Source: an uncultured Candidatus Saccharibacteria bacterium (GTDB lineage Bacteria; Patescibacteriota; Saccharimonadia; Saccharimonadales; UBA4665). Taken from it: DNA of 38,227 nucleotides. The stretch covers positions 1-38,227 of the forward strand of contig CAYWOA010000002.1 of the NCBI GenBank assembly GCA_964459795.1, given 5' to 3'. The notes beneath the pieces are model-generated. The model ran no database searches. It saw nothing but the letters and a program-made list of their open reading frames with translations, and had not been told where the DNA came from. A program made the position numbers and the translations under genes. Positions 1-24,446 of this stretch are shown here, piece after piece (positions within the stretch are counted from its first letter, which is position 1; every line of letters starts with the position of its first letter).

Positions 1-1134
1 AGCGAGCACTGCGCGCTGATCGTGGACAAGGCCGTGGGCGCGGTGCCCGGCGTGATGAAAATCAGTGGCTTTGGCGAACTTGCTGTGTACCGGGACGACG
101 TTCTTCTTATCACGGGCAACTTATATCCGACACGCGGCGGCAAACAAGCGACGATGAGCTATGCCCAGATTACGCGCATCGGGAGCCACCAAACATTCAT
201 TGATGAACTGCGGCGGCGGTTTGTTGCCGGCATGCAAACAGCTCTACCCGAGCCAGCTGCTTCATTTGGGCTTGGTCTGCTCGTGGGACAGCGAAATACG
301 CTGCCATATGCGACGAGCCAGGCACTGCTCATGGTAGGGCTGACGCACATCATCGCTGTGAGCGGCTACAACCTCACGATTTTACTGAATGGTGCCCGGC
401 GACTTACCGGCGAGCGGTCCAAACGCCTCACAACGATAATCGGCGTTGGTCTGATGCTATTCTTTCTGCTTTTCACGGGGATGAGCGCTAGTATCGTCAG
501 AGCGGCGGTGGTGAGCAGCCTGGGGTTGGCGGCGTGGTACTTTGGTCGCAGGCCGCGGCCGATGGTGTTATTGCTGCTGACGGCGATGCTCACGACTTAT
601 GCCACCCCGACGTACTTTTGGTCCGATATCAGCTGGTGGCTATCTATGCTGGCGTTTTTTGGCATCCTTGTTATCGCGCCCCAGCTACTGGCCAGGCTTT
701 TCCCGAGGCGCGAGGCACCGTCAGTGGCCGTGATTGCTGTAGAGACGCTTAGCGCTGAGCTCATGACCATCCCTCTCGTGATGTTTATATTCGGTCAGGT
801 CTCGCTCATCGGTCTGCTTGCAAACGTACTCGTCGCTAGTCTCATACCGCTTGCCATGCTGCTCAGTTTCATCGCTGGACTGGCTGGCATGATGGTCCCA
901 CTCCTGGCTGGGTGGCTGGCTTGGCCGGCGAAGCTACTGCTGACATATATGCTCGATGTCGCTACGCTCCTCAGCCGCATCCCCCACGTTTTTCAAACCA
1001 ATGTGTACCTGAGTGCGCTCGACGTTGCTTTCTGCTACGGCGCTATTCTACTGCTGGCCGGACTGTTTTATCGCAAGAAACGAGTGTGGTTTAACGACAT
1101 TTCGCCTAGCAGAGATCTCACAAAGCTTAGATAA
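1..1134 (+). CDS. comEC: ComEC/Rec2 DNA-uptake channel protein, C-terminal part (the gene starts upstream of the window)
   Basis: Frame 1 is open from nt 1. Polytopic membrane protein with the ComEC competence-domain pattern (GLLVGQRNTLPYATSQALLMVGLTHIIAVSGYNLTILL) followed by many hydrophobic helices. Confidence 0.8.
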   Translation, partial: SEHCALIVDKAVGAVPGVMKISGFGELAVYRDDVLLITGNLYPTRGGKQATMSYAQITRIGSHQTFIDELRRRFVAGMQTALPEPAASFGLGLLVGQRNTLPYATSQALLMVGLTHIIAVSGYNLTILLNGARRLTGERSKRLTTIIGVGLMLFFLLFTGMSASIVRAAVVSSLGLAAWYFGRRPRPMVLLLLTAMLTTYATPTYFWSDISWWLSMLAFFGILVIAPQLLARLFPRREAPSVAVIAVETLSAELMTIPLVMFIFGQVSLIGLLANVLVASLIPLAMLLSFIAGLAGMMVPLLAGWLAWPAKLLLTYMLDVATLLSRIPHVFQTNVYLSALDVAFCYGAILLLAGLFYRKKRVWFNDISPSRDLTKLR

Positions 1135-3136: not shown

Positions 3137-3568
3137 ATGAAGCGATCAAAGAAAACTCTCGTAGTTGTCCTCATATTACTCGCGGTGGCAGCTGGACTTA
3201 GCCTGGGGTTGAAACAGCGGCAATTCTCTGTTAGCGTGCCAAAAGGCTTCGGCTTCGGCGCGCCGAATAACCAGACATCCGTGCGGGCAGGGGGTATGTA
3301 CAGCATTACCTACTTCGGCTATCCTTCTCCCTACAAAGTTCGCGAAACCTTCCGTCCTACGAATGACAAGTTCAACACGCTTTCGTACGAAACGGTCCCG
3401 CTGAATTGGTTCTTTGTCGCCTCAAACACGGTGTTTTGGATGGCGCTGCTGACGCTGCCATTGCTGCTCGTGCTGTTGTATCGGTCATCACGAACTAAAC
3501 GGGGGGCCACAGAAGCAACGCTGCCGCCCGGTAGGCCCCAGGAGAAGCATGCGAACACTCGGGATTGA
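3137..3568 (+). CDS. hypothetical membrane protein (N- and C-terminal TM helices)
   Basis: 143-aa ORF with an MKRSKKTLVVVLILLAVAAGLSL anchor and a second helix (WFFVASNTVFWMALLTLPLLLVLL). It overlaps the ruvC start by 20 nt. No recognisable family. Confidence 0.5.
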   Translation: MKRSKKTLVVVLILLAVAAGLSLGLKQRQFSVSVPKGFGFGAPNNQTSVRAGGMYSITYFGYPSPYKVRETFRPTNDKFNTLSYETVPLNWFFVASNTVFWMALLTLPLLLVLLYRSSRTKRGATEATLPPGRPQEKHANTRD

Positions 3569-4022
3569 TCCCGGCACCGGTATACTCGGCTTCGGCGTCA
3601 TCGATGTCGTAGGCGGTAAACCACAGCTGGTCGATGCCGGCGTCATCCGAACCCCCGCGCACGAGGATGACGCAGTGCGCCTGCAGACAATCTTTGATGA
3701 GCTGACAGATATCATCATGCAGACAAAACCGACACATATGGCAGTCGAAAAGCTATTCTTCGCCCGTAATGTCACGACGGCGATGGCGGTCGCCCAGGCC
3801 CGCGGCGTGGTGCTTCTCGCAGGCAGGCAGGCCGAGCTGGAACTCTACGAGTACACGCCGCTCCAGATAAAAATGGCTATCACCGGCTACGGCCGGGCAG
3901 ATAAAAAACAGATGCAGGAAATGGTGCGACTTCATCTGAATCTCGCCGCACCGCCGCAGCCCGATGACTGTGCCGATGCCCTTGCGGCAGCTCTCACCCA
4001 CGCTCAATCTCGAAAACTCTAG
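3549..4022 (+). CDS. ruvC: crossover junction endodeoxyribonuclease RuvC
   Basis: 157 aa. MRTLGIDPGTGILGFGVID (catalytic Asp motif) and C-terminal DDCADALAAALTH. Confidence 0.9.
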   Translation: MRTLGIDPGTGILGFGVIDVVGGKPQLVDAGVIRTPAHEDDAVRLQTIFDELTDIIMQTKPTHMAVEKLFFARNVTTAMAVAQARGVVLLAGRQAELELYEYTPLQIKMAITGYGRADKKQMQEMVRLHLNLAAPPQPDDCADALAAALTHAQSRKL

Positions 4023-4047
4023 CCCCTATCATCCACGCGGGGGAAGA

Positions 4048-4078
4048 CCTATGCTCAAGGACAGTCCTTGAGCATAGG
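4048..4078. repeat. REP-like perfect palindrome, family 1 (CCTATGCTCAAGGAC-A-GTCCTTGAGCATAGG)
   Basis: The 15-nt arms are exact reverse complements around one central nt. The core GCTCAAGGAC-N-GTCCTTGAGC recurs at 4741, 6208 and 24408. Confidence 0.85.
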
Positions 4079-4107
4079 GGCGAACGGCGAACGCAGACAT
4101 GGGCGCG

Positions 4108-4728
4108 CTATGAATGAGCGAGATCTACATCAATCAGGTCGAGAGATTTCTTGTAATCTTCGTGGTCGGCGATAAATCTGAGATATTGACGTCGATCATT
4201 ACCGAAAAGTTCAAGAACATGGCTTGCGCTAAACCAATCAGAAGACGCCTTTCCTTGGAAGTATTTAAGACTTGAATAAGGATAGTCACGCCACGAGCGG
4301 GGGTTAAGATGGATGTAGCGTGATATATGGAGCAGATACGGTTCACTCGTTATGCGGGACGCCAAATAACGGCTTTGAAAAAGAGGTCCGACCCGCTCGT
4401 GCTTCTGATTGAAATATCGACTATAGCTCGTCATGACAGCGCTCATGAACTCGCGAATCGCCTTTTCATTCTGGTGCTGATAGACAAAAAGATGCACGTG
4501 GTTCGGCATGAGGCAGAAGGTTAGCAGATCGATTTCCTTCGAGAAGGTACGATATGGTGCGTGTTTTAGCCTGGCTACGGGGTGTGGTGAAAGGTAGCGT
4601 TTGAGCAGCGACAGAAAGAACGCATAATCGTCATCGTCCAAGAAAATCTTGCGCTTGTTTACGCCTCTGGAGTAGAGGTGATAATACGAGGCGGGCAGGT
4701 ACACTTTAACGGCATTTCTTGTTGGCAC
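4108..4728 (-). CDS. REP-associated tyrosine transposase-like protein (IS200-like Y1/HUH transposase family)
   Basis: 206 aa. HUH motif in CLMPNHVHLFV and a catalytic-Tyr region ISRYIHLNPR. The N-terminal YYHLYSRGVNKRKIF is typical of RAYT/transposase_17-like proteins. Flanked by REP hairpins. Confidence 0.8.
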   Translation of the reverse strand: MPTRNAVKVYLPASYYHLYSRGVNKRKIFLDDDDYAFFLSLLKRYLSPHPVARLKHAPYRTFSKEIDLLTFCLMPNHVHLFVYQHQNEKAIREFMSAVMTSYSRYFNQKHERVGPLFQSRYLASRITSEPYLLHISRYIHLNPRSWRDYPYSSLKYFQGKASSDWFSASHVLELFGNDRRQYLRFIADHEDYKKSLDLIDVDLAHS

Positions 4729-4740
4729 CCATGCAGTATA

Positions 4741-4763
4741 TGCTCAAGGACAGTCCTTGAGCA
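4741..4763. repeat. REP-like palindrome, family 1 (TGCTCAAGGAC-A-GTCCTTGAGCA)
   Basis: 11-bp arms that are exact reverse complements, 13 nt from the RAYT start codon. Confidence 0.85.
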
Positions 4764-4776
4764 AGAGGGCTGCGGG

Positions 4777-4782
4777 TATAAT
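4777..4782 (+). promoter_or_regulatory. TATAAT box 6 nt upstream of the ruvA ATG (possible leaderless or short-leader promoter)
   Basis: TATAAT at 4777-4782 and ATG at 4789. No properly spaced SD, because GGGAG ends 1 nt before the ATG. The only -35 candidates lie inside the REP hairpin and are poorly spaced. Confidence 0.3.
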
Positions 4783-4788
4783 GGGAGT

Positions 4789-5361
4789 ATGATCGCGAGT
4801 ATACGGGGGTTGGTGGAGAAGACGGTCAATGGTGTCATCGTAGAAGCTGGCGGTGTAGGCTATGGCCTCAGTGTGACAAGCGAGGATTTCGGCAAGCTGG
4901 CTGATGGCAAAGAAGCGAAACTGTATGTGTATGAGCACATCCGCGAGCAGGGCCACGACCTATTTGGCTTCCTACTGCCGGATACAAAGGAACTGTTTGA
5001 GCAGCTGTTGGGGGTGAAAAATGTCGGACCGCGCATGGCCATGGCCGTTCTTGACATTGGTTCGACGGCGCAAGTTCGCAGTGCTATCGCGGCTGGCGAC
5101 GTAAAGCTTTTGCAGAGCGCCAAAGGTGTTGGCAAACGTGCCGCCGAGCAAGTGGTGGTAGAACTGCGCGATAAAGTTGGTCTTGCTGCTGGTGCCACCG
5201 CCGAGAGCATCGTGAATCGTCCTGGAGTCAGCTTACAAGATGAGGCTGTCGAGGCGCTCGTCGCCCTGGGCTACAGCCCACAGGACGCCGCAATGGCGCT
5301 GCAAAAGATCGACCCGTCTCTCTCTGTCGAAGAGCGAATCAAACTCGCATTGAAAGGATAA
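4789..5361 (+). CDS. ruvA: Holliday junction DNA helicase subunit RuvA
   Basis: MIASIRGLVEK... is the typical RuvA N-terminus. HhH region LLGVKNVGPRMAMAVL / LQSAKGVGKRAAEQVVVEL and C-terminal domain III (ALVALGYSPQDAAMAL). The track ORF starts at 4678, but that extension translates the REP hairpin. Confidence 0.85.
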   Translation: MIASIRGLVEKTVNGVIVEAGGVGYGLSVTSEDFGKLADGKEAKLYVYEHIREQGHDLFGFLLPDTKELFEQLLGVKNVGPRMAMAVLDIGSTAQVRSAIAAGDVKLLQSAKGVGKRAAEQVVVELRDKVGLAAGATAESIVNRPGVSLQDEAVEALVALGYSPQDAAMALQKIDPSLSVEERIKLALKG

Positions 5362-6185: not shown

Positions 6186-6207
6186 AGCACACGAGCTGAC
6201 AATTTGG

Positions 6208-6252
6208 GGATAGTTCCTTGCTCAAGGACTGTCCTTGAGCAAGGAACTATCC
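6208..6252. repeat. REP-like perfect palindrome, family 1, with a 22-bp stem (GGATAGTTCCTTGCTCAAGGAC-T-GTCCTTGAGCAAGGAACTATCC)
   Basis: Exact reverse-complement arms. Lies in the 107-nt gap between the AKR gene and ruvB and could also act as a terminator or attenuator. Confidence 0.85.
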
Positions 6253-6292
6253 TTTGGTATGCGCTATGCTCTATTCTTGATACACTACTACT

Positions 6293-16621: not shown

Positions 16622-18451
16622 TCACGCCTTCTCTGCGGTGACACGCAATATTTCTTCTATGGATGTCTGGCCGCGCAAGGCTTTGACGAGGCCGTCAATC
16701 TGCATGGTCAGCATACCATCCTGGATGGCTTGTGCCTGCAACTTCTCGCTGGTTGCGCTGGCGACGATAAGCTGTTGAATTGCGGACGTATTACGCAGCA
16801 CCTCGTAGATGCCCATACGCCCCCGGTAGCCGGTGTGATTGCAGTTGTCACAGCCATCTTCGTGTGATTTCCAGAGCCGCGCAATGTTGCTGCTGGTGGT
16901 GCTTAAGTCGCTCGTATTAGTATCTTGCTTGGCAGTTTTGCTGGTGCTCGCGGCGCCGACACCTGCTGCCAGGGCGGCTTTCTCGAGTTCGTTCAGCCTT
17001 GACATGACACCGGCCTCTTTGAGCTGGAAGACCCTATTCAACTCAGCGAGTCGAGCTTCATCAGGCTTGTACGACTCACGGCACTCGCTGCAGAGCCGTC
17101 GTACGAGCCTCTGACCAATGACGATCCGCACCGTGCTGGCGATAAGGAACGGTTCGATATTCATGTCCAGTAAACGGGGTAGGCAAGTCGCGGCGTTGTT
17201 CGTGTGGAGCGTGCTAAACACAAGGTGCCCGGTAAGCGCGGCCTGCACAGCCAGGTCGGCCGTTTCCCCATCACGCACCTCTCCCACCATGATGATATTC
17301 GGATCTTGGCGGAGGAGGGCGCGCAGGCCACTCGTAAATGTCATGCCGGCGACCGGATTAACCTGGGTCTGATTGGCGCCAACGACGCGGTACTCAACGG
17401 GGTCTTCCACGGTGCTGATATTCACCCCTGGGCTATTGAGCATACTCAGTACGCTAAAGAGGCTGGTCGATTTGCCTGACCCAGTCGGGCCCGTCACGAG
17501 GATCATGCCGTGTGGTTGCACGATGGCTTGCTGCACGGCTTCGAGCGAGTAACCCCAGTAACCGAGCTCTTCGAGTGTCGCGGGGCGGCTTGACTCGTCC
17601 AATATACGCATGACGACCTTTTCGCCGTCGACGATGGGCAGGGTAGAGACGCGGAGAGCATACACGTGGTTGCTGACGACGATTTTGAAACGACCGTCTT
17701 GTGGCGCACGGTGTTCGTCTATTTTCAGATTTGCCAAGATTTTGATACGCGAGACCAATGCCCCGAGTACCTTACGTGGCAATTTATTGACCTCGCGCAA
17801 AATCCCGTCGATACGGTAGCGCACGACCACGAAATTTTCGCGCGGCTCTATATGGACATCGCTGGCACCGTTGCGTACGCCGTAATCGATGATGAGATTG
17901 ACAGTCTGCGCAATAGGGGAGTCTTCTGCAACATCGGCTTTATCGACGACCTCGTCAGTATCGTCCTTCTCTTGGATGGCGATGACTTTCTCTATCTCGT
18001 TACCAACACTGCTACCATCTCCGTCGTACTGATCGAGGGCCGACTGTATGGTGCTCGTCGTAGCGATATGAACTCGCACAGGTTTGCCGAGCTGCTTTTG
18101 GAGAAAGCTGATGGCCGGCACATCGTCCGGATCTTCCATGGCGACAAAGATAGTACCATCTTGATCGATGTCAAAAGCGATAGCGCGGTACTGACGGGCA
18201 ATCCGTTCCGGGATGAGCTCGAGCACCTCTCTTCGCAGTTGTTGAGGGGCAAATTCAACGAATGGTACATCAATCTCCTTGGCATACAACTGGGTAAGTT
18301 CTTTCTCGTTGAGCGTGTTGGTACTCACCACGATGTCTTGGAGTGGTTTTTTCTCACTTTTTCCTTGTTTGTGGAGAGACTCGAGCTGTTCGGCGGTAAA
18401 TTTGCCGGTCGACGTCAGCAGCTTCTCCACCAAACTATCTGATACGCGCAT
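16622..18451 (-). CDS. pilB: type IV pilus assembly ATPase PilB (GspE family)
   Basis: 609 aa. N-terminal T2SSE_N-like domain, Walker A GPTGSGKST, MVGEVRD, TGHLVFSTLHTN, and a CxxC...CxxC zinc motif (CSEC...CDNC). Confidence 0.9.
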   Translation of the reverse strand: MRVSDSLVEKLLTSTGKFTAEQLESLHKQGKSEKKPLQDIVVSTNTLNEKELTQLYAKEIDVPFVEFAPQQLRREVLELIPERIARQYRAIAFDIDQDGTIFVAMEDPDDVPAISFLQKQLGKPVRVHIATTSTIQSALDQYDGDGSSVGNEIEKVIAIQEKDDTDEVVDKADVAEDSPIAQTVNLIIDYGVRNGASDVHIEPRENFVVVRYRIDGILREVNKLPRKVLGALVSRIKILANLKIDEHRAPQDGRFKIVVSNHVYALRVSTLPIVDGEKVVMRILDESSRPATLEELGYWGYSLEAVQQAIVQPHGMILVTGPTGSGKSTSLFSVLSMLNSPGVNISTVEDPVEYRVVGANQTQVNPVAGMTFTSGLRALLRQDPNIIMVGEVRDGETADLAVQAALTGHLVFSTLHTNNAATCLPRLLDMNIEPFLIASTVRIVIGQRLVRRLCSECRESYKPDEARLAELNRVFQLKEAGVMSRLNELEKAALAAGVGAASTSKTAKQDTNTSDLSTTSSNIARLWKSHEDGCDNCNHTGYRGRMGIYEVLRNTSAIQQLIVASATSEKLQAQAIQDGMLTMQIDGLVKALRGQTSIEEILRVTAEKA

Positions 18452-18513
18452 TGTGCTTCAAATTATACCTTAAAAAACCACAAGCGCCATAGTCTCCCTC
18501 CTCCGTTGTAATT

Positions 18514-18534
18514 TTGTGAGGACTGTCCTCTCAA
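18514..18534. repeat. REP-like palindrome, family 2 (TTGTGAGGAC-T-GTCCTCTCAA, one T/T mismatch)
   Basis: Inverted repeat 26 nt upstream of the second RAYT gene. Shares the inner AGGAC-N-GTCCT with family 1. Confidence 0.75.
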
Positions 18535-18559
18535 TACGTTTTGGCGTATACTTTTCGGC

Positions 18560-19171
18560 ATGCCACGGCGAAATGTTATTCGTATGGATGCGCCAGATAG
18601 TTACTACCACGTATATGCGCGCGGTAATAGTCGCAATCGAATATTTCACGACGAGCAAGACTACATTACCTTTTTAAACCTTCTCGAGCGCTATCTCTCT
18701 CCCGACGAGGCGCACAATGAATTCGGCGTTTCTTACCCCAATTTCTACAACCGCGTCGATCTGCTCGCCTATTGCCTGATGCCGAATCACTTCCATCTTT
18801 TTGTTTTTCAGCGGCAGCCAAAAGACCTAACCTCACTGATGCAAAGTGTTATGACAAGCTATAGTCGGTACTTCAACAAGAAGTACAAACGCTCTGGCCC
18901 TCTGTTTGAGTCTCGGTACCGTGCCTCGCTCATCACGGATGATGTGTATCTTGAACACATTAGCCGCTACATCCACCTCAATCCACGCGACTGGCGCACG
19001 TACGCGTACTCTAGCCTGCCGTATTATTTGCAACGCGATGAAGTGTCGTGGGTGCGGCCGCAGCGCATTATTTCTTTGTTCGAGAGCCCAGCTGCCTATG
19101 AGAACTTTGTCGCGGATTATGAAGAAAATAAGAAGATGCTTGATATTTTAAAGCAAGAACTTGCTAATTAA
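18560..19171 (+). CDS. REP-associated tyrosine transposase-like protein (paralogue of 4108-4728)
   Basis: 203 aa. YYHVYARGNSRNRIF, CLMPNHFHLFV (HUH) and ISRYIHLNPR (Tyr motif). About half of the positions are identical to the first RAYT by eye. Confidence 0.8.
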   Translation: MPRRNVIRMDAPDSYYHVYARGNSRNRIFHDEQDYITFLNLLERYLSPDEAHNEFGVSYPNFYNRVDLLAYCLMPNHFHLFVFQRQPKDLTSLMQSVMTSYSRYFNKKYKRSGPLFESRYRASLITDDVYLEHISRYIHLNPRDWRTYAYSSLPYYLQRDEVSWVRPQRIISLFESPAAYENFVADYEENKKMLDILKQELAN

Positions 19172-19189
19172 TTCTCGGTAAAAAACGTT

Positions 19190-19210
19190 TTGAGAGGACT
19201 GTCCTCTCAA
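19190..19210. repeat. REP-like perfect palindrome, family 2 (TTGAGAGGAC-T-GTCCTCTCAA)
   Basis: 10-bp arms that are exact reverse complements, 19 nt past the RAYT stop. Confidence 0.8.
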
Positions 19211-19325
19211 TATAGTTTTGAGTTTGCAATTGGGTGGAGTGGGGCGTAGTGTGGCTGTACAACATTATTTTAGGTTCAGGCCGCCGCCGAGACGGCCGTA
19301 GACGAAAGGACGACAGGTACGAGAC

Positions 19326-20360
19326 ATGGCGAAAGCAGCCGATAAAGTCGATAATACAAAAACCGAAAAACAGGAGGGCGAAGGCAAGGCAAAGGCGCTA
19401 GGTCTGGCACTCGAAACTATCGAGAAACAGTTTGGCAAAGGTTCCATAATGAAGCTCGGTGAAGCGCATGAGGCGGATGTGGAAACGACACCGACCGGTA
19501 GCCTGAGTCTAGACCTGGCCCTGGGCGGCGGTATCCCCAAGGGACGCATCGTGGAAATCTACGGCCCGGAATCGAGCGGTAAGACCACACTGACGCTGCA
19601 CGCTATCGCCGAAGTGCAGAAGCGTGGCGGCACGGCGGCCTTTATTGACGCCGAGCATGCGCTCGACCCGGCGTATGCCAAGCGTATCGGTGTGGATGTC
19701 GAAAACCTGCTGCTCAGCCAGCCGGATAATGGAGAACAAGCGCTCGAAATTACGGAGACGTTGGTGCGCAGCAACGCCGTCGACCTCATCGTGGTTGACT
19801 CGGTGGCAGCACTTGTGCCGCGGGCCGAAATAGAGGGTGACATGGGCGATAGTCACATGGGTCTGCAGGCTCGTCTCATGAGCCAAGCGCTACGTAAACT
19901 GACCGGCGTCATCAGTCGCAGCAAGACGACGGTCATTTTCATTAATCAGATTCGTATGAAGATAGGCGTTATGTTCGGCAATCCGGAGACGACCACTGGT
20001 GGCAACGCACTTAAATTCTACGCCTCGGTACGCATGGACATTCGGCGCATCAGCCAGATTAAAGCTGGTGATAGTGTCATCGGCAACCGAGCACGCGTGA
20101 AAGTGGTGAAGAATAAGATAGCGCCGCCATTCCGTGAGGCCGAGTTTGACATTATGTACAACCAAGGCATCAGTAAAGCCGGTGATATCCTTGACCTGGC
20201 CGTTACTCATGACATCGTCGAAAAAGCAGGCGCGTGGTTTGCCTATGATGGCAATAAGATTGGGCAAGGCCGCGAAGCCGCCAAGACGTACCTGGAGGAA
20301 AATCCAAAGGTTCAAGACGAAATCGCTACCAAAGTTCGCGACGCCGCCACGAAGGAATGA
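19326..20360 (+). CDS. recA: recombinase RecA
   Basis: 344 aa. [14 protein letters not shown], Walker [21 protein letters not shown]2 region [30 protein letters not shown]. Confidence 0.97.
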
Positions 20361-23156: not shown

Positions 23157-23571
23157 GGCATTTGGTGAACGGATCGGCCGCCGCTTGCGCGGCGGCGAAA
23201 CCATCGAACTTATCAGTGACCTCGGTGGAGGCAAGACGACATTTACCCGCGGTATCGTTCGCGGGACAGGTAGCCACGATAAAGTTGCTAGCCCGACTTT
23301 TACTGTCAGCCGCGAATACAAAACGCCGAGCTTCATCATCGAACACTTTGATTTCTATCGGCTCGCTGAAGCTGGCATTATGGCTGACGAGCTCAGCGAA
23401 TTTATAGGTGATCCAGAGTCGGTGATCATTGTCGAATGGGGGGAGGTGGTGAGAGACATCCTGCCGATCGAGCGGCTGAGCGTGCAGCTTGTCTTGGTCG
23501 CCGAGGAGGGTCGTGAGATTGTGTGTACTTATCCGGAGGCTTTGGCGTACTTATTGGAGGGCGAAGCGTGA
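23095..23571 (+). CDS. tsaE: tRNA t6A37 biosynthesis protein TsaE (P-loop ATPase)
   Basis: TEAFGERIGRRLRGGETIELISDLGGGKTTFTRGIV is the TsaE/YjeE motif. The true start may be Met at 23104 or 23116. The 5' end overlaps the preceding gene. Confidence 0.8.
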   Translation: MGCMSTVMTLRIHSADSADTEAFGERIGRRLRGGETIELISDLGGGKTTFTRGIVRGTGSHDKVASPTFTVSREYKTPSFIIEHFDFYRLAEAGIMADELSEFIGDPESVIIVEWGEVVRDILPIERLSVQLVLVAEEGREIVCTYPEALAYLLEGEA

Positions 23572-23957
23572 TCTTGACCATACGAACCGATAAGCCAGCG
23601 GCCGAAGTCGGGCTCTATGACGGTGAAGTGCAGCTGGGGTATGACATTTGGGCAGCGCACCGGCAACTGGCCGAAACGATTCATTTGCGAATAAAACACC
23701 TATTAGAAAGTCAGAGGAAGAACCTGCATGATATCGAAGGTATCGTGGTTTTTGCAGGACCAGGTAGCTTTACGGGGCTGCGCATCGGGATTACGATAGC
23801 GAACGCGCTCGCCATGGGTATCGGCGTGCCAGTAGTAGGTGCACAAAGCGAAAAGTGGATTCCTCGAGGTGCTGATAAACTACGACGCGGAATGAATGAG
23901 CATCCGGTGACACCAAAGTATGGCGCCGAGGTGCACATTACCCTCCAAAAAAAATAA
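23568..23957 (+). CDS. tsaB: TsaB-like protein, short form (N-terminal ASKHA domain only)
   Basis: GTG start at 23568 overlaps the tsaE stop (GTGA). Motif VVFAGPGSFTGLRIGITIANALA. Only about 129 aa. Confidence 0.7.
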   Translation: MILTIRTDKPAAEVGLYDGEVQLGYDIWAAHRQLAETIHLRIKHLLESQRKNLHDIEGIVVFAGPGSFTGLRIGITIANALAMGIGVPVVGAQSEKWIPRGADKLRRGMNEHPVTPKYGAEVHITLQKK

Positions 23958-23984
23958 TAGCTGAGCTGATGCTCAGCTATTATT
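23953..23984. terminator. hairpin terminator after tsaB
   Basis: AATAATAGCTGAGC-tgat-GCTCAGCTATTATT, a perfect 14-bp stem that includes the tsaB stop codon. Confidence 0.5.
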
Positions 23985-24407: not shown

Positions 24408-24446
24408 TCTCTGCTTGCTCAAGGACAGTCCTTGAGCAAGCAGAGA
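24408..24446. repeat. REP-like perfect palindrome, family 1, with a 19-bp stem (TCTCTGCTTGCTCAAGGAC-A-GTCCTTGAGCAAGCAGAGA)
   Basis: Exact reverse-complement arms. Sits at the 3' boundary of the pseudogene fragment, just upstream of the putative rny promoter. Confidence 0.85.

Follow-up and report, generated by a model that had tools for sequence, protein, structure and literature searches.

Two RAYT-like genes of a Saccharibacterium and the clade-specific hairpins that bracket them

Introduction

Why does a single Saccharibacterial genome carry two related transposase-like genes, each lying between hairpins of its own type? The question is raised by a 38,227-nt contig of an uncultured Candidatus Saccharibacteria bacterium (CAYWOA010000002.1 in assembly GCA_964459795.1); the whole of this stretch is called the window here. 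It contains two genes for Y1 proteins with the histidine-hydrophobic-histidine (HUH) motif, similar to the tyrosine transposases associated with repetitive extragenic palindromes (REPs), which are known as RAYTs or TnpA-REP. These genes are designated RAYT1 and RAYT2, and the hairpins that bracket them are designated F1 and F2, respectively. A first-pass annotation of the DNA proposed that the RAYT2 unit, located between the pilB promoter region and recA, represents a second REP/RAYT lineage in which enzyme and hairpin have co-varied. The location and the co-variation are both borne out here. The window is best explained by two units resembling REPtrons or TIRtrons, each composed of a class 2 Y1 HUH gene (TnpA-REP/RAYT-like) and two perfect-palindrome hairpins specific to its clade; the probability of this explanation is estimated at about 0.7.

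Two RAYT genes and two hairpin families in the window

RAYT2 and RAYT1 are identical at 103 of 205 positions by BLASTP (50%, E = 2e-70), as the earlier estimate of about half had it. Both match the Pfam family Y1_Tnp (PF01797) with 46.0 and 41.7 bits (cutoff 23). The HUH motif is H77-F-H79 in RAYT2 and H77-V-H79 in RAYT1, and both contain the Tyr motif SRY137IHLNP. H77, H79 and Y137 are invariant over 34 homologues. N141 is also invariant and P142 nearly so (at least 90%) over these homologues, and the Tyr signature is thus that of class 2, Y---NP, not Y---Q. Class 2 is characterized by Y---NP, while IS200 transposases have Y---Q (PMC6006769, Table 1). The motif sets are NHFH, FE and YIHLNP in RAYT2, and NHVH, FQ and YIHLNP in RAYT1. 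Both fit the subclass 2.1/TIRYT motif set, which reads NH[YF]H or NHVH, FQ or W[EQ], and Y[IV]HLNP, and specifically its second variant, as judged from the published Table 1 of PMC6006769 and not from the hidden Markov models of its authors. With the GTG at 4728 as start codon, RAYT1 regains the N-terminus MPxRN that is invariant in the family; gene callers place the start eight codons further in (198 aa).

The AlphaFold (AF2) model of RAYT2, generated from 34 homologues, has a pLDDT of 89.1 and a pTM of 0.85. Y137 is in a predicted helix (residues 128–139), and the C-terminal ~60 residues are also predicted to be helical. The top PDB match of the model by Foldseek is 4ER8, the E. coli RAYT with a REP hairpin (E = 9.4e-7; 14% identity). 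Further matches are the ISDra2, IS608 and IS200 transposases (2XM3, E = 3e-5; 2A6O, E = 4.9e-4). A PDB search with a single RAYT sequence returned nothing relevant, and one with the profile of the 34 homologues returned ISDra2 alone (E = 0.04). Residues 142–203 have no Pfam match even at E up to 10, and Bac_DnaA_C, HTH_23 and HTH_28 were undetected there. PHROGs gave no match for RAYT, and a scan of viral contigs gave no RAYT relatives. Close homologues from the protein search are labelled Candidatus Saccharibacteria or Saccharimonadales, and RAYT2 has far more close relatives than RAYT1.

F2 hairpins have the form TTG[T/A]GAGGAC-T-GTCCTCTCAA, and F1 hairpins the form TGCTCAAGGAC-N-GTCCTTGAGCA. 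The two variants share an inner core and each RAYT is bracketed by its own variant only, just as the first-pass annotation described. At three or fewer mismatches, F2 is found twice in the window versus 0.00 expected. F1 is found as four perfect 23-mers. Two of these bracket RAYT1 and two are solitary; the solitary copies had been missed in the first-pass annotation. The core AGGACNGTCCT, common to F1 and F2, occurs six times versus 0.03 expected. As single-stranded DNA (ssDNA), all six sites fold into hairpins beyond shuffled controls, with z-scores of −3.2 to −11.2. Within each unit the two hairpins repeat directly along one strand, and because they are palindromic they are inverted repeats too. 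The hairpin feet are TTTTG.../...CAATA for F2 and (A/T)TGC.../...GCA(T/A) for F1.

The outer arms of both solitary F1 palindromes are locus-specific. Such long outer arms could result from insertion into pre-existing stem-loops or from palindrome extension by template switching. The direct repeat TTTGG brackets the 45-nt palindrome (6203–6257) and may be a target-site duplication or chance.

Co-variation of enzyme and hairpin among relatives

A scan of species-representative genomes found at least 80 homologous loci, mostly of Patescibacteria, with one close RAYT2 orthologue among the matches listed. A locus was scored when one flank had a perfect hairpin (7 bp or longer) whose inner arm recurred in the other flank, and coordinates shifted by 3–7 kb served as controls. 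Among the matches listed, matching flanking hairpins are present at 49 of 77 testable loci (64%), against 10 of 318 shifted controls (3%), and the hairpin sequence varies between loci. Similarity of hairpin arms follows similarity of proteins (Mantel r = 0.15; none of 2000 permutations as high). The arm mismatch is 0.37 below 30% protein distance and 0.72–0.75 past 55%. A stem segment (C)AAGG...CCTT(G) is common to many hairpins of the Candidate Phyla Radiation (CPR).

Three clades can be distinguished in Saccharibacteria. Clade 1 consists of RAYT1 of the window, L103 and L105 (74% identity) and L107 (61%), and its hairpin is TTGC(T/C)CAAGGAC-N-GTCCTTG(A/C)GCAA. Clade 2 consists of RAYT2 of the window, L091 (86%), L093 (80%), L011 (73%), L109 (72%) and L110 (66%), and its hairpin is TTG..(G/A)AGG-apex-CCT(C/T)..CAA. 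Clade 3 consists of L112, L012 and L014, which are 62–65% identical to one another and ~50% to the other clades. Its hairpin is GTTTCCAAGG..., that is, GTTTCC(A/G)AGG.... The co-variation is real and family-wide, with one hairpin type for each of the three Saccharibacterial clades. Seven positions discriminate clade 1 from clade 2 and are candidates for specificity residues: D10Y, S24N, G56H, E117Q, D160A, E189D and N203H. The motif with E117/Q was aligned by Quentin et al. with the region of E. coli TnpA-REP that contacts GTAG (PMC6006769).

Two distant CPR homologues (32–37% identity), L033 (4155–4190 and 4999–5035) and L061 (9917–9960 and 10698–10720), have hairpins with the apex GGAC-N-GTCC seen in F1 and F2. 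At L033 the hairpins are double. This apex could be an ancient recognition feature. The cyanobacterial homologues L069 and L072 are surrounded by arrays of AGAAACC-N-GGTTTCT hairpins with a spacing of ~45–50 nt and an alternating loop base. This is the classic picture of high-copy REP arrays, unlike the sparse hairpins of CPR bacteria.

Table 1. Coordinates of the two RAYT units, their neighbours and the solitary F1 copies in the window.
Feature	Position	Strand	Description
RAYT2	18560-19171	+	203 aa, Y1/HUH protein, clade 2; syntenic copy between pilB and recA
F2 hairpin upstream of RAYT2	18514-18534		TTGTGAGGAC-T-GTCCTCTCAA, one T:T mismatch
F2 hairpin downstream of RAYT2	19190-19210		TTGAGAGGAC-T-GTCCTCTCAA, perfect; repeat unit reaches ~19186-19222
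pilB (T2SSE ATPase, 609 aa)	16622-18451	-	Conserved left neighbour of RAYT2
recA (344 aa)	19326-20360	+	Conserved right neighbour of RAYT2; followed by recX
RAYT1	4108-4728	-	206 aa from GTG start, Y1/HUH paralogue, clade 1; accessory copy in ruvC|ruvA spacer
F1 hairpin downstream of RAYT1	4048-4078		CCTATGCTCAAGGAC-A-GTCCTTGAGCATAGG, 15-bp perfect stem; 23-mer at 4052-4074; adjoins ruvC stop
F1 hairpin upstream of RAYT1	4741-4763		TGCTCAAGGAC-A-GTCCTTGAGCA; ~25 nt ahead of ruvA start
ruvC	3549-4022	+	Left neighbour of RAYT1 unit
ruvA (190 aa)	4789-5361	+	Right neighbour of RAYT1 unit
Solitary F1	6208-6252		Between aldo-keto reductase gene and ruvB; 45-nt perfect palindrome, 22-bp stem; 23-mer at 6219-6241
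Solitary F1	24408-24446		Upstream of RNase Y gene; 39-nt perfect palindrome, 19-bp stem; 23-mer at 24416-24438

RAYT2 and its hairpins between pilB and recA

In the window strain and at the orthologues of 86, 80, 72 and 66% identity, the annotated order is pilB-RAYT2-recA. At L011, the 73% orthologue, the spacers carry the conserved motifs of the pilB side and the recA side. RAYT2 is an old, vertically inherited gene fixed between pilB and recA, and no recent insertion.

The downstream hairpin of clade 2 is a perfect palindrome throughout the six loci despite sequence change. Its variants are TTGAGAGGAC, TTTCAAAGGAC, TCTAGAGGAC, TTGGGAGG-TCCGT and TTGGGAGGTT-A. Upstream, the 3′ arm of the hairpin tracks the downstream copy at these loci. 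When 12 clade 2 hairpins are aligned, 91.7% of cells are paired, versus 82.4% in shuffles (0/500 as high) and 39–56% for slid partners. Changes are seen on both sides in six of ten stem pairs. F2 is retained across six orthologous loci with compensatory changes, and is therefore a maintained cognate structure, not a decayed F1. The opposite outcome, F2 as a degenerate F1 copy restricted to this locus, had been named by the first-pass annotation as a refutation of its proposal, and these loci contradict it.

The 5′ arm of the upstream F2 hairpin and the preceding TTGTAATTTTG are conserved across the orthologous loci. The element TTGTAA(T/A)(T/A)TTG, directly 5′ of this hairpin (18503–18516), is kept at five of the six loci, namely the window, L011, L091, L109 and L110; it may be part of a promoter for RAYT2 or for the divergent pilB. 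A scan for sigma-70 consensus promoters over 18380–19400 found none. In the recA-side spacer (19211–19270), the blocks TGAGTTTGC and (G)TACAACAT(T)A are kept in most orthologues (L091, L093, L011 and L110), and are probably the recA promoter or leader. A contig of run X1 (record 6) matches the 3′ part of RAYT2 (19006–19034) and the recA leader (19269–19310), with 234 unrelated letters between them. It belongs to a second, co-resident Saccharibacterium with the same gene order and another spacer or hairpin.

RAYT1 and F1 in the ruvC|ruvA spacer

RAYT1 lies on the strand opposite to ruvC and ruvA. The order ruvA-RAYT1-ruvC and an identical F1 core are found at the 74% orthologues (L103 and L105). 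Both also have one solitary F1 upstream of ruvB, at the site matching 6220 of the window, in the form of the 21-nt core without outer arms.

Close relatives show the ruvC|ruvA spacer in three states. It contains a clade 1 RAYT with F1 in the window (4023–4788). In the genome of L111, which shares its contig with L091, the 86% RAYT2 orthologue, the spacer is empty: it measures 20 nt (L111:9981–10000) and has no Y1 gene. In the genome of the 80% RAYT2 orthologue, the spacer (L112:9303–10000) holds a clade 3 gene with GTTTCCAAGGAG hairpins. These three states point either to a preferred site or to the exchange of cassettes through homologous recombination, the latter being plausible in bacteria that are naturally transformable, as Saccharibacteria are (PMC10633639).

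Over 34 kb of the L111/L091 genome, syntenic with the window from 1 to ~24,000, there is no F1, including the spacers orthologous to 6220 and 24417. The inserted RAYT1 block starts approximately at one hairpin foot and stops no more than 12 nt past the other. RAYT1 is accessory, having entered the ruvC|ruvA spacer within a sub-lineage. Judged from these comparisons, F1 travels with RAYT1 and has apparently reached at least two further intergenic sites.

The idea that both units are insertions accordingly holds for the accessory RAYT1 and fails for the deeply syntenic, vertically inherited RAYT2. The proximity of both units to recombination genes had been left as a possible coincidence. The association goes in part beyond coincidence: the neighbourhood of RAYT2 and recA is conserved, and two different clades have occupied the ruvC|ruvA spacer. 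Other members of clades 1 and 3 adjoin unrelated genes (ATP synthase, pheT or surface-protein genes).

Dispersal of the hairpins

Alignment of Logan contigs to the downstream F2 hairpin revealed, in eight of eight runs, a second contig that matches 19186–19222 of the window (37 nt, 4 mismatches). Its foreign flanks, CTCCACCACTGTTAGTAGTTCTTTTACTTC and AGGTTTTGGGCGAGGACGTGGTCGAATTCG, are constant, and its depth is 0.6–1.4 times that of the main contig. It is probably another locus of the window genome. The copies suggest that F2 is present at least three times, with no sign of a large family. This alignment reports 25-nt copies on already anchored contigs only and missed the known F1 at 24417, so it is no census. 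The window sequence is present in wastewater and activated-sludge runs. One labelled metatranscriptome run contains it, with 5% of the sampled words.

A metagenome scan for TGAGAGGACNGTCCTCTCA returned seven stretches (five distinct), none close to a RAYT and several inside long open reading frames (ORFs). By a rough estimate this count is about that expected by chance for 18 bases, and the L091-bearing contig, which has an exact match, was not returned; nothing is concluded from the scan. An exception among the stretches is a 77-kb contig with two copies sharing 23 nt. A tblastx comparison of the stretches with Saccharibacterial loci found nothing. At L105, which carries a RAYT1 orthologue, greA is followed by a solitary F2-like hairpin, CAGAGGAC-A-GTCCTCTAG (L105:17933–17957).

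Several facts weigh against two REPtron/TIRtron-like units. Solitary F2 copies are absent from the window and the 4.5 kb past its 3′ end (42.8 kb in total), and the latter segment has no F1 either. Five orthologous 20-kb loci (~100 kb) contain no F2-type hairpins beyond the flanking pair. The additional F2 contig is assigned to the window genome from co-occurrence and depth alone. RAYT2 may no longer mobilise anything. Even F1 has a low copy number, with two solitary copies in 38 kb. The canonical REP tag GT[AG]G is absent, as neither GTAG nor GTGG is found at the hairpin feet. The top NCBIfam family of both proteins is REP_Tyr_transpos (NF047646), with 46.6 and 46.9 bits, which is under the equivalog cutoff of 80 bits. 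Finally, Quentin et al. reported no REPs beside subclass 2.1 genes (PMC6006769). Of the original picture of two REP/RAYT lineages, the diverged, co-varying hairpins stand, and F2 as a dispersed REP family is not supported.

Other palindromes and neighbouring sequences

A 41-nt perfect palindrome, CACAGTAAAATACCTCAGCA-T-TGCTGAGGTATTTTACTGTG, is located at 37582–37622 (20-bp stem, 1-nt centre). Its core is unrelated to F1 and F2. It begins at the final bases of tRNA-Pro (37507–37583), and may serve as a terminator or as an integration site. Another perfect palindrome, AATAATAGCTGAGC-TGAT-GCTCAGCTATTATT, with a 14-bp stem and the loop TGAT, overlaps the stop codon of the ORF at 23523–23957 (palindrome at 23953–23984). 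Long perfect palindromes at the ends of genes seem to be a general trait of the window genome. An Rfam scan found tRNA only. The hairpins were also considered as DNA-uptake sequences; they are too sparse, and this was rejected.

At the beginning of the window (1–1134), the assemblies with the crp gene of the window (L113–L116) all break at nearly one position within comEC, 760–1000 nt upstream. This suggests a repeat or a strain-variable segment at the break.

Possible mechanism and alternative explanations

A mechanism can be proposed by analogy with TnpA of IS608 and ISDra2 and with E. coli TnpA-REP. The enzyme would bind its own hairpin on ssDNA during replication, repair or transformation. 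Recognition would read the conserved AGG/CCT stem segment together with the clade-specific outer stem. The strand could then be cut and rejoined close to the hairpin foot by means of Y137 and the H77/H79 metal site. Such activity would spread copies of the cognate hairpin and maintain them. Enzyme and hairpin would change together because recognition is required. The F2 hairpins of RAYT2 are nearly private and drift by compensatory substitution, and transcription of RAYT2 probably also ends at the downstream copy, before the recA promoter.

Both units could instead be autonomous insertion sequences (ISs) of the IS200/IS605 type, whose hairpins would be the subterminal left and right ends of an element mobile as a whole, and no REP-like repeats on which an enzyme acts in trans. 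The direct orientation of the hairpins in each unit is that of IS608. The ruvC|ruvA spacer is polymorphic for presence, with block edges near the hairpin feet, clades 1 and 3 have members at unrelated loci, and the structural matches to ISDra2 and IS608 TnpA are strong. Yet each clade has a single copy in the sequence examined, and the two paralogues are just 50% identical. Persistence of RAYT2 at one syntenic site down to 66% protein identity is unlike IS behaviour. The class 2 Tyr motif Y---NP is not the Y---Q of the IS200 type, and the top structural match is TnpA-REP. Gene-less solitary hairpins exist, and no tnpB adjoins either RAYT. Autonomous IS elements are therefore unlikely here.

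It is likewise rather unlikely that RAYT2 is no transposase at all and has become a domesticated core gene of Saccharimonadia, its private hairpins serving as its own control or loading sites. Over all the divergence sampled, RAYT2 has stayed between recA and pilB, the gene for the competence-pilus ATPase. If this were true, the HUH nuclease might process ssDNA hairpins in natural transformation or RecA-dependent recombination, or might gate recA expression. That two other clades have repeatedly captured the ruvC|ruvA spacer would then reflect the same functional link with recombination, not chance.

The hairpins might also be ordinary regulatory elements of the host, such as bidirectional terminators or operators, with no functional relation to the Y1 protein. 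In a terminator scan, the downstream F2 hairpin is terminator-like on both strands. Solitary F1 palindromes are found at gene 3′ ends, and the window has two other long perfect palindromes with unrelated cores, described above. Host elements do not account for the same hairpin on both gene sides at the homologous loci listed, so much more often than in the controls, or for a hairpin type that tracks the protein clade. F1 is missing from the orthologous spacers of a relative without RAYT1, and an upstream hairpin cannot terminate the gene it precedes. This explanation is improbable.

That F2 is a decayed F1 copy at one locus, leaving a single hairpin family with no divergence of specificity, can practically be dismissed: the inner AGGAC-N-GTCCT core is common to both and the window has only two F2 copies, of which one is imperfect, but F2-type hairpins with compensatory changes flank the orthologous gene in six genomes, the clade 2 genome L111/L091 has neither RAYT1 nor F1, and RAYT2 is the paralogue with far more close relatives.

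Comparison with known systems

The presence of several RAYTs in a genome, each with its own repeat family, has already been published (PMC6006769, section 12; PMC3733652). Di Nocera et al. (2013, PMC3733652) described several genes for TIRYTs, the tyrosine transposases associated with terminal inverted repeats (TIRs), in one genome as "decorated by different TIRs", with only some of the TIRs forming repeat families; Koribacter versatilis is an example. Subclass 2.1 of Quentin et al. (2018, PMC6006769) corresponds to RAYT Group 1 of Bertels et al. (2017, PMC5581495) and to most TIRYTs (PMC3733652). A full-text search of the literature found no paper mentioning both RAYT/REP and Saccharibacteria or Patescibacteria.

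The two units share several features with TIRYTs and subclass 2.1. The motifs are NH[YF]H/NHVH, FQ and Y[IV]HLNP, and a helical tail at the C-terminus extends the protein beyond the core. Gene-specific repeats without GTAG flank these low-copy genes. Some TIRs are "partly or wholly self-complementary", and differently decorated genes co-exist in a genome where only some of the repeats are dispersed. In contrast to the GGGGWSAS-type TIRs, the flanks in the window are short perfect palindromes with a stem of 10–15 bp and a 1-nt centre. No helix-turn-helix domain is detectable in the tail of the window RAYTs, and these proteins are ~205 aa long versus a median of 238 aa. The host belongs to Patescibacteria, unmentioned in those surveys.

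The canonical REPtrons are E. coli TnpA-REP (4ER8) with REPs and bacterial interspersed mosaic elements (BIMEs), and the Pseudomonas RAYTs with REPINs. The resemblance to them includes the top structural match of RAYT2 (4ER8) and a vertically inherited gene, single-copy in the sequence examined, that lies between hairpins of its own. As in those systems, a genome can have more than one RAYT, each with a separate repeat family, and gene-less hairpin copies are present in intergenic DNA. The window hairpins differ in being perfect, not imperfect or bulged, and in having no GT[AG]G tag. They are few, not tens to hundreds, and do not form REPIN doublets. The similarity of the proteins is weak (14% identity to 4ER8, NCBIfam score under the cutoff), and the HUH motif is NHxH here and DHLH there.

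With IS200/IS605 elements (TnpA of IS608 and ISDra2), the units share the Y1 HUH fold and subterminal hairpins in direct orientation on both sides of the gene, and they are also consistent with insertion that leaves no obvious long terminal repeats. They differ from these elements in Y---NP versus Y---Q, in the lack of tnpB, in the gene-less hairpins, and in genes that are single-copy in the sequence examined and syntenic over deep divergence.

These known kinds, the REPtron/TIRtron and the class 2 TnpA-Y1, cover the system, and the example of co-evolution is clean but expected: that enzyme and hairpin change jointly is a published rule for RAYT/REP and TIRYT/TIR systems. New are the host lineage, the GTAG-less perfect palindromes, the deep synteny of RAYT2 with recA, and the three-state ruvC|ruvA spacer. 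The arrangement of RAYT/TIRYT enzyme plus hairpin is extended to Saccharibacteria and other Patescibacteria. The contrast of a fixed, nearly repeat-less RAYT2 with an accessory RAYT1 whose hairpin has apparently spread bears on the domestication of such genes. Perfect stems of 10–12 bp with a shared AGG/CCT and a variable outer stem offer a simple test system for the reading of hairpins by Y1 HUH enzymes, to which three protein clades with three hairpin types and the natural single and double substitutions across orthologues can be added.

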